Shown here one piece after another: positions 6,001 to 9,000 of a stretch of DNA of 64,000 nt. Position 1 is the first letter of the stretch; every line of letters begins with the position of its first letter. A program made the position numbers. Source of the stretch: Escherichia coli (GTDB taxonomy: Bacteria; Pseudomonadota; Gammaproteobacteria; Enterobacterales; Enterobacteriaceae); the NCBI RefSeq assembly GCF_017348835.2, contig NZ_CP072315.1. One strand, given 5' to 3'.

Positions 6001-9000
6001 AGATCAGTGGTGGGATGAACGAGACTTTGCAGTAATTGATCCCGACAACAATTTGATTAGCTTTTTTCAACAAATAAAAAGCTAAAATCTATTATTAATC
6101 TGTTCAGCAATCGGGCGCGATTGCTGAATAAAAGATACGAGAGACCTCTCTTGTATCTTTTTTATTTTGAGTGGTTTTGTCCGTTACACTAGAAAACCGA
6201 AAGACAATAAAAATTTTATTCTTGCTGAGTCTGGCTTTCGGTAAGCTAGACAAAACGGACAAAATAAAAATCTAAATATGCTTGAACAACTTGTAACTTA
6301 AATTCATAACTGTATTTTGCCATAAAAAATGACCTCCCATAAGTTAGATTTTTGGTCTAACTTATGGGGGTCAGTTCATTCTACACTTGGGCTGCATGTT
6401 TTGATTAATTATCTAATATCTCCGGATCTCCTGTAAAGGAATATAAAACTGCCTGCATGTTTTTCAAATAAAATACGGTGAATTTCCCATCATCAGCGCT
6501 ATACCAATCTCTCAAATGCGGATTTGCTTCAAGCATTGCTTCCCTTGCTTCCACGGTATCATCAATTACGGCTTCGCCGGTGAGCCGAATCCATTTTCCT
6601 TTTGCCATACCTGAGACTTCCACCTTTGAATTTGCCAATAACTGCTGATAAACTTTTTTCTGATTGGTTGTACCAAGATAGACCTTGCCATTCCTCTCCA
6701 TGGCTGCATTAAACGGTCTGACCCTTGGCTGGTCTCCTTCAACGGTTGCAAAATAAAAAGTTTTTGCTTCATTTAAAAAATCAACAACTTGACTCATCCT
6801 TTTTTACCTCCATAAATAAATTTTTCTTTACTTTTCTTTGACCTAAATTCCACGTGCATTTTTTATTAGCTTAAAAGAACACTATTTCACGAAGAATTTA
6901 AACTGATACTCCCACATTGTAACATTATTTACCACCACCTTTCAATCTTTTTCAATAAATTATTGATTGCAACTTTTGAGTAAAGATACTTATTAAACCC
7001 TGCAAGTTATCCACAGAGCAACACTCGATTTTCAAGATGATATCTTTATTACACCAGACATTTTTCATACACTTCCTTGGGCACTGTTGCAAAGTTAGCG
7101 ATGAGGCAGCCTTTTGTCTTATTCAAAGGCCTTACATTTCAAAAACTCTGCTTACCAGGCGCATTTCGCCCAGGGGATCACCATAATAAAATGCTGAGGC
7201 CTGGCCTTTGCGTAGTGCACGCATCACCTCAATACCTTTGATGGTGGCGTAAGCCGTCTTCATGGATTTAAATCCCAGCGTGGCGTTGATTATCCGTTTC
7301 AGTTTGCCATGATCGCATTCAATCACGTTGTTCCGGTACTTAATCTGTCGGTGTTCAACGTCAGACGGGCACCGGCCTTCGCGTTTGAGCAGAGCAAGCG
7401 CGCGACCATAGGCGGGCGCTTTATCCGTGTTGATGAATCGTGGGATCTGCCACTTCTTCACGTTGTTGAGGATTTTACCCAGAAACCGGTATGCAGCTTT
7501 GCTGTTACGACGGGAGGAGAGATAAAAATCGACAGTGCGGCCCCGGCTGTCGACGGCCCGGTACAGATACGCCCAGCGGCCATTGACCTTCACGTAGGTT
7601 TCATCCATGTGCCACGGGCAAAGATCGGAAGGGTTACGCCAGTACCAGCGCAGCCGTTTTTCCATTTCAGGCGCATAACGCTGAACCCAGCGGTAAATCG
7701 TGGAGTGATCGACATTCACTCCGCGTTCAGCCAGCATCTCCTGCAGCTCACGGTAACTGATGCCGTATTTGCAGTACCAGCGTACGGCCCACAGAATGAT
7801 GTCACGCTGAAAATGCCGGCCTTTGAATGGGTTCATGTGCAGCTCCATCAGCAAAAGGGGATGATAAGTTTATCACCACCGACTATTTGCAACAGTGCCC
7901 AAACGCGAAGGCCGGTGCCCGTCTGACGTTGAACACCGACAGATTAAGTACCGGAACAACGTGATTGAATGCGATCATGGCAAACTGAAACGGATAATCG
8001 GCGCCACGCTGGGATTTAAATCCATGAAGACGGCTTACGCCACCATCAAAGGTATTGAGGTGATGCGTGCACTACGCAAAGGCCAGGCCTCAGCATTTTA
8101 TTATGGTGATCCCCTGGGCGAAATGCGCCTGGTAAGCAGAGTTTTTGAAATGTAAGGCCTTTGAATAAGACAAAAGGCTGCCTCATCGCTAACTTTGCAA
8201 CAGTGCCGGCTGAAGGCCGAGCAAGCCTGACAGGCCCGAAAAGCCCGGCACGGGCGTCGGCGGCGATGACGGCGGCGGCATTATCCAGGGTTGATGATGG
8301 AAGTGGAGGATATCGACAACCTCTCGCGCAACCAAGACATCGCGGTCGGACTGCAAGTGATCTTGAAGCCACGGGCCCGTCCCACCCCGACATGGACCTC
8401 GATGCCCGAACGGACGTTAGATTTCGAGTTCTAGGCGTTCTGCGATGAAGGTTGGATCCCAGCCGGGATTGAAAGTGTCGACGTGGGTGAATCCGAGCCG
8501 CTCGTATAGGCCACGCAGGTTCGGGTGGCAGTCGAGCCGCAGCTTGGCGCACCCCTGCGTTCGCGCGGCATGGCGGCAAGCCTCGATCAGCGCGGAGCTG
8601 ACACCCCGGCCCGCATGTGTCCGTCGCACCGCGAGCTTGTGCAGATATGCGGCCTCCCCCTTGAGGGCGTCGGGCCAGAACTCGGGATCCTCGGCCGACA
8701 AGGTGCAACAGCCGACGATGCCGTCGCTGCAACTCGCGACTAGGAGCTCGGATCTCAGGACGAAGGTCTCCGCGAATGTCCGGTCGATCCGCGCGACGTC
8801 CCAGGCGGGCGTTCCCTTGGCGGACATCCACGCCGCAGCGTCGTGCATCAGCCGCACAACCTCGTCGATATCACCCGAGCAGGCGACCCGAACGTTCGGA
8901 GGCTCCTCGCTGTCCATTCGCTCCCCTGGCGCGGTATGAACCGCCGCCTCATAGTGCAGTTTGATCCTGACGAGCCCAGCATGTCTGCGCCCACCTTCGC

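Follow-up and report, generated by a model that had tools for sequence, protein, structure and literature searches.

The nested hairpins that follow a truncated bleomycin resistance gene (ΔbleO) in the 64-kb stretch of Escherichia coli DNA analysed here (the window) are very likely a truncated relic of the lagging-strand origin of the staphylococcal rolling-circle plasmid pUB110, carried as passenger DNA in an IS26-rich resistance region. Window positions 5694-6271 are identical to the complement of pUB110 1972-1395 (NC_001384.1) in 578 out of 578 positions, and this was the sole match when the whole of pUB110 was compared with the window by blastn. The same segment is 100% identical in the pUB110 copy of pSK41, in which it comes right behind bleO and precedes mobV. 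The earlier note had suspected a Gram-positive block that was carried over with bleO from a rolling-circle plasmid, and both suspicions are borne out, by the 578 bp of perfect identity and by a G+C content of 37% against 52% for the window. The match covers, again at 100%, part of the bleO-mob spacer that bears the pUB110 origin: window 6086-6271 corresponds to the first 186 nt (186/186) of the 509-nt spacer from the bleO stop to the mob ATG, or to approximately the first 186 of the about 400 nt preceding oriT. The blastn comparison found neither rep, dso, oriT nor mob in the 64-kb window, and therefore the remnant cannot act as a plasmid origin.

Table 1. Hairpins, genes and mobile-element pieces around the pUB110-derived segment (window positions)
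Feature	Position	Strand	Description
Left IS26, 819 bp	4739-5557	+	IR positions; transposase frame split, ORFs 4784-5314 and 5185-5505
ΔTn2 (Tn2/Tn3 tnpA fragment), between left IS26 and ΔbleO	5558-5693	-	ORF translation ...ISEVREKATLRLWNKLALIPSAEQRSQLEMLLG
pUB110-derived segment	5694-6271	+	ΔbleO and first 186 nt of bleO-mob spacer
ΔbleO, 5'-truncated bleomycin-binding protein gene	5708-6085	+	ORF; Pfam Glyoxalase/Ble-like_N
Hairpin 1	6103-6128	+	Perfect 11-bp stem TTCAGCAATCG/CGATTGCTGAA, loop GGCG
Hairpin 2	6130-6172	+	14-15-bp stem, 2-4-nt loop, then TTTTTTATTTT; intrinsic-terminator-like
Hairpin 3, nested imperfect palindrome	6175-6265	+	Outer 11-bp stem, 4-bp CTAG stem
Breakpoint, end of pUB110 homology	6271-6272	.	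AAAAAT|CTAAAT in window, AAAAAT|TGGCAA in pUB110
ISEfa10-like IS3-family element, first ~112 bp	6272-6383	-	IRL TGAACTGACCCCCATAAGTTAGACC, 6383->6359
Pyridoxamine 5'-phosphate oxidase family gene (PNPOx), 130 aa	6405-6797	-	PF01243, 39.7 bits; convergent with ΔbleO
ISEcp1-like IS1380-family right end (ΔISEnca1)	6842-7079	-	87% over 238 bp to ISEcp1 ends
Right IS26, 820 bp	7080-7899	-	Intact 240-aa ORF

Folded as single-stranded DNA, the intact pUB110 spacer forms five hairpins (-87.9 kcal/mol, z = -10.8 against dinucleotide shuffles), in the order two short hairpins, the second resembling a terminator in its stem and T run, two large hairpins, and a fifth hairpin, followed by oriT. The window keeps the first three (6086-6280: -42.5 kcal/mol, z = -9.1), while hairpins 4 and 5, oriT and mob are lost beyond the breakpoint. 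The first of them, a perfect 11-bp hairpin, had been overlooked in the earlier note. In the second, the repeat finder reports arms at 6130-6144 and 6147-6161 (15 nt, 93% complementary, gap of 2 nt). The third, 91 nt long, confirms the nested inverted repeats noted before at 6175-6264: its outer arms, TTTTGTCCGTT (6175-6185) and AACGGACAAAA (6254-6264), pair in 11 of 11 positions, and its inner arms (6189-6206 and 6232-6249, 78%) take in CTAG..CCGAAAG and CTTTCGG..CTAG, with a 7-8-bp CCGAAAG/CTTTCGG stem below an AT-rich apex that carries CTTGCTGAG. The 4-bp middle stem is formed by one CTAG motif pairing with the other, and these motifs are not, as had been supposed, the centre of symmetry. 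The folding check proposed with that description turns out far better than shuffled controls on both strands, with RNA z-scores of -8.7 (+ strand) and -9.7 (- strand) for the spacer 6086-6404, and the long palindrome on its own (6170-6270) reaches -20.4 kcal/mol as single-stranded DNA (z = -5.5, 0 of 200 shuffles as good). An Rfam scan of 5500-7100 at E <= 1 detected no known RNA family, the sole match being a chance hit to AfaR with 21.6 bits against a cut-off of 100 bits.

The minus origin (palU/ssoU) of pUB110 has been placed in the bleO-mob spacer, upstream of oriT, and the lagging-strand signal of pUB110 derivatives lies in the membrane-binding region BA3, beside the bleomycin gene. According to reviews, such origins work through the host RNA polymerase, which binds the folded single strand and makes a short primer from which the lagging strand is synthesized; their function depends on orientation and is host-restricted to Firmicutes. 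By analogy, in pUB110 the displaced rep-sense strand, equivalent to the window + strand, would fold and be recognised by the host RNA polymerase, which would make the primer. The strand that matches the window + strand is the one that carries rep, aadD, ble and mob. In pMV158 the order is tetL-ssoU-oriT(3570-3595)-mobM. The pMV158 ssoU, at approximately 3216-3429, would correspond to hairpins 2-4. The precise functional limits of the origin in the spacer, like its primer sites and those bound by RNA polymerase, are inferred from comparative data. The pUB110 sso itself has been taken as 340 nt (PMC4595007). On the present reading, the active fragment would reach past pUB110 position 1395 to about 1210-1320 and so take in hairpin 4 and possibly hairpin 5.

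Compared with the ssoU/palU (BA3) regions of pUB110, pMV158, pTB913 and pIP823-type plasmids, the block in the window thus has the same hairpin architecture on the same rep-sense strand: its source is non-coding DNA between a resistance gene and oriT-mob, as for the ssoU of pMV158, and it is the displaced strand that shows the low z-scores given above. The earlier suggestion of a structure resembling a single-strand origin is therefore correct as to the pUB110 spacer that holds this origin, but only the 5' portion of the origin region is left. The homology stops at 6271, hairpins 4 and 5 of the ~340-nt fragment are absent, and no rep with dso, nor a MOBV oriT, accompanies the fragment in cis in the 64-kb window. 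Unlike its counterparts, the fragment lies in an IS26-rich, non-pUB110 region of enterobacterial type, which gives rise to no rolling-circle intermediate. The relic has almost certainly ceased to be an origin, and it is probably inert as a single-strand origin.

Part of a polymerase-binding site may have been kept at the apex of hairpin 3, as CTTGCTGAG resembles the RSB core of a palA plasmid (TTTATGCCGAGAAAA) and the RSB core of ssoA (ATGCCGAG). No copy of the CS-6 motif TAGCG[TA] occurs in the entire pUB110 spacer. A match of pUB110 spacer positions 317-372 to 2.47-kb ermC plasmids was considered as an RSB and rejected, since it represents the flank of an RSA/oriT remnant, beyond which the palA RSB lies in these plasmids.

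Window 6113-6271 is identical (159/159) in pIP823, pEpi0143-OL-3 and many Enterococcus tet(L) plasmids, where the block lies between mobV and a resistance gene or pair that comes before it, namely tet(L), dfrD or aadD-tet(L). The backbone common to plasmids with different resistance genes starts inside hairpin 1, at approximately 6107-6113, and the homology in dfrD, tet(L) and erm plasmids begins at query position 22-28. A copy in Bacillus cereus plasmid pJ2_6, 81% identical, has the same five-hairpin architecture (z = -11.1). In this copy the outer and inner stems of hairpin 3 and the CTTGCTGAG motif are invariant with respect to pUB110; conservation does not extend to the CTAG stem. All 4 substitutions in hairpin 2 of pJ2_6 and pUR3912 preserve pairing (G-T/G-C or T-A/T-G). 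For hairpin 3 covariation gives thin support, with three distinct variants and one compensatory pair, and as the available variants (the pUB110 type, pUR3912 and the pJ2_6 type) are too few for statistics, these are pair counts only.

The part that is missing from the window includes the most conserved hairpin. Hairpin 4 is the sole part common to the Bacillus rolling-circle (RepL-type) plasmids, with invariant GGTGGAGATTTTT and AAAAATAC-ACC blocks and compensatory changes in its apical stem. Hairpin 3 forms the 5' half of the block of hairpins 3 and 4 in the pUB110 ssoU region, and the two behave as one unit, since pGB2001 lacks both. In the Gram-positive plasmids pUR3912, pWo27-9 and pWo28-3, further truncated aadD-bleO segments of pUB110 are likewise cut at the boundary of hairpins 3 and 4, at most 16 nt from the same place, but their partners at the cut are different: the cut adjoins IS257 in pUR3912, an IS21-family element in pWo27-9/pWo28-3 and, in the window, an IS3-family element that is itself truncated internally. 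These are three independent IS-type junctions at most 16 nt apart. That the half-origin is not inert is very unlikely. In such a case the stable hairpin 3 and the AT-rich joint to hairpin 4 could form a structure-dependent site at which IS elements insert or deletions arise with preference, or the retained hairpins could recruit RNA polymerase on single-stranded DNA and aid complementary-strand synthesis during conjugative transfer of the carrier plasmid.

The spacer between the convergent genes, which the earlier note treated as one unit, is a mosaic of pUB110 DNA and the end of an IS3-family element. The truncated spacer is joined to the ISEfa10-like IS3 end, followed by the PNPOx gene and the ISEcp1-like (ΔISEnca1) end, and the whole Gram-positive mosaic (5694-7079) sits in ΔTn2 between the IS26 copies. 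The IS3-family fragment has its IRL (TGAACTGACCCCC..., starting with TG) at 6383, followed by an orfA with a conserved N-terminus, of which the ATG at 6323 and 17 codons (MAKYSYEFKLQVVQAYL) remain up to the truncation. This orfA start aligns with the start of the E. faecium ISEfa10-family transposase, and the fragment matches Enterococcus plasmids at approximately 78%, the match falling on the 5' end of what is annotated there as 'IS3-like element ISEfa10 family transposase'. Its 13-bp hairpin at 6336-6368, separate from the pUB110-type hairpins, overlaps the Shine-Dalgarno sequence GGAGG; the terminator scan calls it terminator-like on the - strand, but I rejected it as a dedicated PNPOx terminator, as it belongs to the IS3-family fragment, in which it lies next to the IRL. 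The ISEcp1-like right end, truncated by IS26, contains both an IRR (CCTAAATTCCACGT at 6842-6855) and, in the promoter scan, an outward promoter (TTGAAA-18-TACAAT, 6945->6916) that faces the PNPOx gene. An alternative ISEcp1-type right end at 6272 was dropped: the IRR matches are weak (6/14 at 6271-6284 and 5/14 at 5694-5707) and the second copy of any target duplication has been lost to IS26, which leaves this end unsupported. The translation of the ORF in ΔTn2 matches a Tn3-type TnpA.

The mosaic is an ordinary, already known relic, which lies upstream of the oqxAB transposon Tn6010 in pOLA52. In pOLA52 (NC_010378.1) window 5520-7100 is matched at 99.9% over 100% of its length, and the published layout 'ΔTn2, IS26, blmS, orf63, ΔISEnca1', described as identical to pOLA52, places ΔTn2 at the corresponding position and gives the ISEcp1-like end its name ΔISEnca1 (PMC5645526). 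The published descriptions examined of the blmS-orf63-ΔISEnca1 fragment mention neither the sso remnant nor the IS3 fragment. The same mosaic with the same junctions is found in pOLA52, pHNSHP45-2 and pHXY0908, among others, upstream of Tn6010/oqxAB; in the window, in contrast to the Tn6010 plasmids in which oqxAB follows directly, what comes after the right IS26 is a further IS26 fragment with other resistance genes. Approximately 384-453 near-full-length copies of the module occur in PLSDB, all in Enterobacterales among the matches listed, and every context examined for the exact PNPOx protein has the PNPOx-ΔbleO pair with an adjacent IS26. The mosaic moves as a fixed unit together with resistance regions of the oqxAB/Tn6010 type in Enterobacteriaceae, and it is found in both orientations in different plasmids. 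A Gram-positive ancestor with the junction of ssoU and IS3 was not found, as the exact 25-mer is absent from species-representative genomes and from JGI metagenome contigs.

Alternatively, the hairpins could have been kept as a bidirectional terminator that shields the two convergent genes, ΔbleO and PNPOx, from each other in the enterobacterial plasmid, a reading that had been proposed earlier and that I consider unlikely. It holds in part for hairpin 2, which lies with the other hairpins between the two convergent reading frames and has the canonical form of a rho-independent terminator on the + strand, a G+C-containing stem-loop with a T tract (6130-6161, then TTTTTTATTTT); the terminator scan detects it as 6130-6161 with TTATTTTGAG, with 14 pairs of which 4 are G-C. 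The terminator previously placed after bleO is thus real, T run included, but its stem starts at 6130 instead of 6133. On the - strand hairpin 2 is followed by TTTTATTC only. Hairpin 3 differs from such terminators, being preceded by GAGTGG and followed by AAAATAAAAATC, and because it has a T run on neither strand it is not a canonical bidirectional terminator. Moreover, ΔbleO has neither its native ATG nor an RBS or promoter, with an in-frame TAG at 5693-5695, so that little transcription is likely to need stopping, and transcripts of PNPOx would reach the hairpin of the IS3 end (6368-6336) first. The 100% identity to pUB110 indicates that nothing was shaped in the new host, and linkage alone accounts for the presence of the hairpins. 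Hairpin 2 is not simply 'the bleO terminator' either, because it is kept in the conserved backbone block even where the upstream gene faces away (ermCL in pJ2_6 and pUR3912). For the relic of the pUB110 origin, the likeliest residual activity would be that hairpin 2 terminates transcription behind the bleO gene, which lacks its promoter and its 5' part.

Still less credible is that hairpins 2-3 continue to work as a single-strand initiation signal, priming the complementary strand after conjugative entry of single-stranded DNA. The ssoU has been reported to be important for the conjugative establishment of pMV158, and hairpin 3 is stable as single-stranded DNA and keeps the motif shared by pUB110 and pJ2_6. 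However, the most conserved hairpin has been lost from what behaves as a unit of hairpins 3 and 4, and neither the orientation dependence and the restriction of sso function to Firmicutes nor the occurrence of the module in both orientations across plasmids points in this direction. That the palindromes are chance inverted repeats of an AT-rich spacer, without a structural role even in pUB110, can practically be dismissed: AT-rich DNA is indeed rich in short inverted repeats, with 19 pairs found in 371 bp, and the CTAG middle stem varies in pJ2_6, but fold z-scores between -5.5 and -10.8 relative to dinucleotide shuffles, a five-hairpin architecture that survives at 81% identity, stems of hairpins 2 and 3 that are invariant or conservatively changed, and the coincidence with the mapped lagging-strand origin region all contradict it.

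The truncated relic of the pUB110 origin carries little biological weight, and it has some value for annotation. Plasmid records annotate ΔbleO as bleO, and the 'bleO' that resistance-gene finders report for hundreds of plasmids of E. coli, Salmonella and Klebsiella is promoterless and 5'-truncated, and travels with an IS3 end, an ISEcp1-like end and half of a lagging-strand origin of Gram-positive source. The junctions 5693|5694, 6271|6272, 6383, 6842 and 7079|7080 can be used as markers to trace the module. The mosaic is a compact fossil of the flow of DNA from Firmicutes to Enterobacteriaceae, with mobilisation of the ISEnca1 type, followed by capture by IS26, as the probable route.

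The truncated bleomycin-resistance gene (ΔbleO) and part of the spacer downstream of it are pUB110 DNA. Positions 5694-6271 match positions 1972-1395 of pUB110 (NC_001384.1) at 578 of 578 nucleotides; no other pUB110 DNA is present in the 64 kb. The segment begins within bleO, with the first codons, ribosome-binding site and promoter gone and an in-frame TAG at its start (5693-5695), and it continues past the end of bleO (stop at 6085) into what is, in pUB110, the spacer between bleO and the MobV relaxase gene. This identity, running from bleO into the spacer, bears out the earlier note's suggestion of a carry-over from a Gram-positive rolling-circle plasmid. 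In the pUB110 copy within pSK41 (L001) the spacer measures 509 nt (3998-4506) and ends in a pMV158-type oriT (nick motif GTGTG/TTA at ~4426) followed by the mob start. Comparison with the whole of pUB110 detected no rep, double-strand origin (dso), oriT or mob in the 64-kb window.

The terminator hairpin and nested inverted repeats described in the earlier note are both present. The arms of hairpin 2 form a 15-nt inverted repeat (6130-6144/6147-6161), and a pattern scan marks this hairpin with its T run as a terminator-like site on the + strand. Hairpin 3, the long palindrome, has perfect 11-nt outer arms, TTTTGTCCGTT/AACGGACAAAA (6175-6185/6254-6264), and an inner 18-nt pair at 78% (6189-6206/6232-6249) that includes CTAG..CCGAAAG / CTTTCGG..CTAG, as located by the repeat finder. 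Two further hairpins, absent from the earlier note, are a perfect 11-bp one (6103-6128) and a 13-bp one (6336-6368). As RNA, the 319-nt spacer up to the convergent PNPOx gene folds far better than shuffled controls on both strands (z = -8.7 on +, -9.7 on -); as single-stranded DNA, 6086-6280 reaches -42.5 kcal/mol (z = -9.1), and hairpin 3 alone folds at -20.4 kcal/mol (z = -5.5).

The spacer is the region of the pUB110 single-strand origin (sso). This sso has been taken as a 340-nt fragment (PMC4595007), and the order in pMV158 is tetL-ssoU-oriT(3570-3595)-mobM-ssoA. In derivatives of pUB110, the signal that starts lagging-strand synthesis was assigned to the membrane-binding region BA3, beside the bleomycin gene. 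Elements of the sso type are active on the displaced strand only and have extensive secondary structure, which is recognised by the host RNA polymerase that synthesises the primer. All pUB110 genes, rep included, lie on what is here the + strand; as is established for pC194-family plasmids, this rep-sense strand is the displaced one. Folded as single-stranded DNA, the intact spacer forms five hairpins, numbered from the bleO end (-87.9 kcal/mol, z = -10.8), and a full-length copy in Bacillus cereus pJ2_6, 81% identical, has the same architecture (z = -11.1). With the oriT nick as anchor, the pMV158 ssoU (~3216-3429) presumably corresponds to L001 4047-4260 and so spans hairpins 2-4.

Features of the mosaic and of the intact pUB110 spacer
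Feature	Window	Strand	L001	Remark
IS26, left copy	4739-5557			819 bp, not 820
Tn2/Tn3 tnpA fragment	5558-5693			abuts left IS26
Hairpin 1	6103-6128		4018-4043	
Hairpin 2	6130-6161		4045-4076	
Hairpin 3	6175-6265		4090-4180	
Hairpin 4	absent		4181-4262	
Hairpin 5	absent		~4270-4345	
orfA start, IS3-family end	6323	-		encodes MAKYSYEFKLQVVQAYL (first 17 codons), then cut
Hairpin over Shine-Dalgarno sequence, IS3-family end	6368-6336	-		
IRL, IS3-family end	from 6383	-		TGAACTGACCCCCATAAGTTAGACC
PNPOx-family gene	6797-6405	-		
ISEcp1-like IS1380-family right end	6842-7079	-		87% identical to ISEcp1; published as ΔISEnca1
IS26, right copy	7080-7899			intact; cuts ISEcp1-like end

A backbone beginning at about window position 6107-6113, inside hairpin 1, and 100% identical onward to 6271 is common to plasmids with other resistance genes, namely pIP823 (dfrD), pEpi0143-OL-3 (aadD-tet(L)), many Enterococcus tet(L) plasmids, and pJ2_6 and pUR3912 (erm genes). 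This places hairpins 2 and 3 in the conserved replication and mobilisation backbone, outside the bleO cassette. In hairpin 2, pairing is preserved by 4/4 substitutions in pJ2_6 and pUR3912. Neither the 11-bp outer stem of hairpin 3 nor its CCGAAAG/CTTTCGG inner stem varies, and one pair shows a compensatory change; in pJ2_6 the CTAG/CTAG stem is lost and two pairs are gained beside the outer stem instead. With three sequence variants the covariation support is weak, and the argument for structure is mainly one of fold statistics and conserved architecture. The Streptococcus agalactiae erm(T) plasmid pGB2001 (L012 60-260) keeps hairpins 1, 2 and 5 and oriT, with 3 and 4 precisely absent; since hairpin 2 runs directly into 5, hairpins 3 and 4 were gained or lost as one block of ~196 nt, and pGB2001, a naturally occurring variant by deletion or insertion, delimits the ssoU core. 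Hairpin 4 is the sole part of the spacer with relatives beyond the pUB110 family, matching ~150 Bacillus plasmid records. Close relatives lie upstream of repL in small plasmids of the B. cereus group and B. badius (L016 711-762, L017 1501-1549, L018 1501-1563), and in RepL-type plasmids the GGTGGAGATTTTT and AAAAATAC-ACC blocks are invariant and the apical stem shows compensatory changes. Hairpin 4 is probably an sso core common to otherwise unrelated replicons.

Full-length pUB110-type spacers, extending past hairpin 3, are also recorded in p131-3 (NZ_CP111007.1, L010, E. coli J53, 6,883 bp) and in a second E. coli record (NZ_KY865320.1, hit H222, 67 kb). Typing puts p131-3 in the pUB110 replicon cluster, a hint that a pUB110-like replicon has been recorded in an E. 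coli host, unless contamination or faulty assembly accounts for it.

Homology to pUB110 ends at 6271 (AAAAAT/CTAAAT in the window vs AAAAAT/TGGCAA in pUB110). Positions 6272-6383 (- strand) correspond to the initial ~112 bp of an element of the IS3 family, ~78% related to ISEfa10 of Enterococcus plasmids; the terminator-like hairpin at 6336-6368 was rejected as a dedicated PNPOx terminator because it falls within this fragment. This IS3-family left end, fused internally to the spacer, is absent from the plasmid annotations examined and from the published module description. An exact 25-mer search of species-representative genomes and JGI metagenome contigs found no Gram-positive ancestor with the 6271/6272 junction. 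Independent truncations or insertions in pUB110-type spacers fall within 16 nt of each other at the joint of hairpins 3 and 4 in pUR3912 (L006 ~3660), pWo27-9 (L014 ~2699), pWo28-3 (L015 ~2678) and the window (6271). The partners are IS257, an IS21-family element and the IS3 fragment. A hot spot that depends on AT-richness or on structure may lie at this joint, or the clustering may be a coincidence.

The ISEcp1-like end has an outward promoter (TTGAAA-18-TACAAT) pointing at the PNPOx gene, and the presence of this end suggests that the Gram-positive mosaic may have entered Tn2 by ISEcp1-style one-ended transposition. For pOLA52 and its relatives, the exact fragment (ΔTn2, IS26, blmS, orf63, ΔISEnca1) has been described upstream of Tn6010, the transposon carrying oqxAB (PMC5645526); pOLA52 matches the module at 99.9%. 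Near-full-length copies occur in roughly 384-453 PLSDB records, the hosts among the matches listed being E. coli, Salmonella, Klebsiella, Shigella, Enterobacter, Citrobacter and Proteus, and the exact PNPOx protein has ΔbleO as neighbour and an adjacent IS26 in every context examined. The 64 kb holds at least nine copies of IS26, whether complete or partial (inverted repeats at 4739, 7080, 14801, 18763, 32683, 37917, 43272 and 47259, plus partners), and is an IS26-dense multiresistance region that includes an acetyltransferase-like ORF (8417-8917) and a sul1-like ORF (9045-9971). The transposase frame of the left copy is split into two ORFs (4784-5314 and 5185-5505), by a genuine frameshift or through faulty assembly.

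The remnant is most likely a passenger relic, inactive as an origin and kept by linkage. Origin activity would be lost because hairpins 4 and 5 are missing and nothing linked generates the rep-sense single strand; persistence would follow from linkage in the IS26-bounded module, and at 100% identity to pUB110 the fragment shows no remodelling in the new host. A selected terminator or insulator is unlikely. The bidirectional terminator proposed earlier fits hairpin 2 alone, and in part: this hairpin probably still terminates any + strand read-through. Hairpin 3 has a T tract on neither side and is thus not a canonical terminator. Residual priming activity, for which the strong single-stranded fold might speak, is very doubtful given the missing hairpins, and pure chance is scarcely credible against the shuffled controls.

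The remnant is a fragment of ssoU/palU, the pUB110-type single-strand origin, with similar working. The single-strand-origin-like carry-over first suggested thus stands as to source, a pUB110-identical piece of the ssoU region, but the piece is incomplete and unlinked to a rolling-circle replicon, for which reasons I file it as a 'ΔssoU (pUB110) remnant' instead of an origin. The ssoU origin and the enterobacterial mosaic are both already known; half an sso joined to an IS3 end within that mosaic, unmentioned in the published accounts examined, is a detail of annotation.
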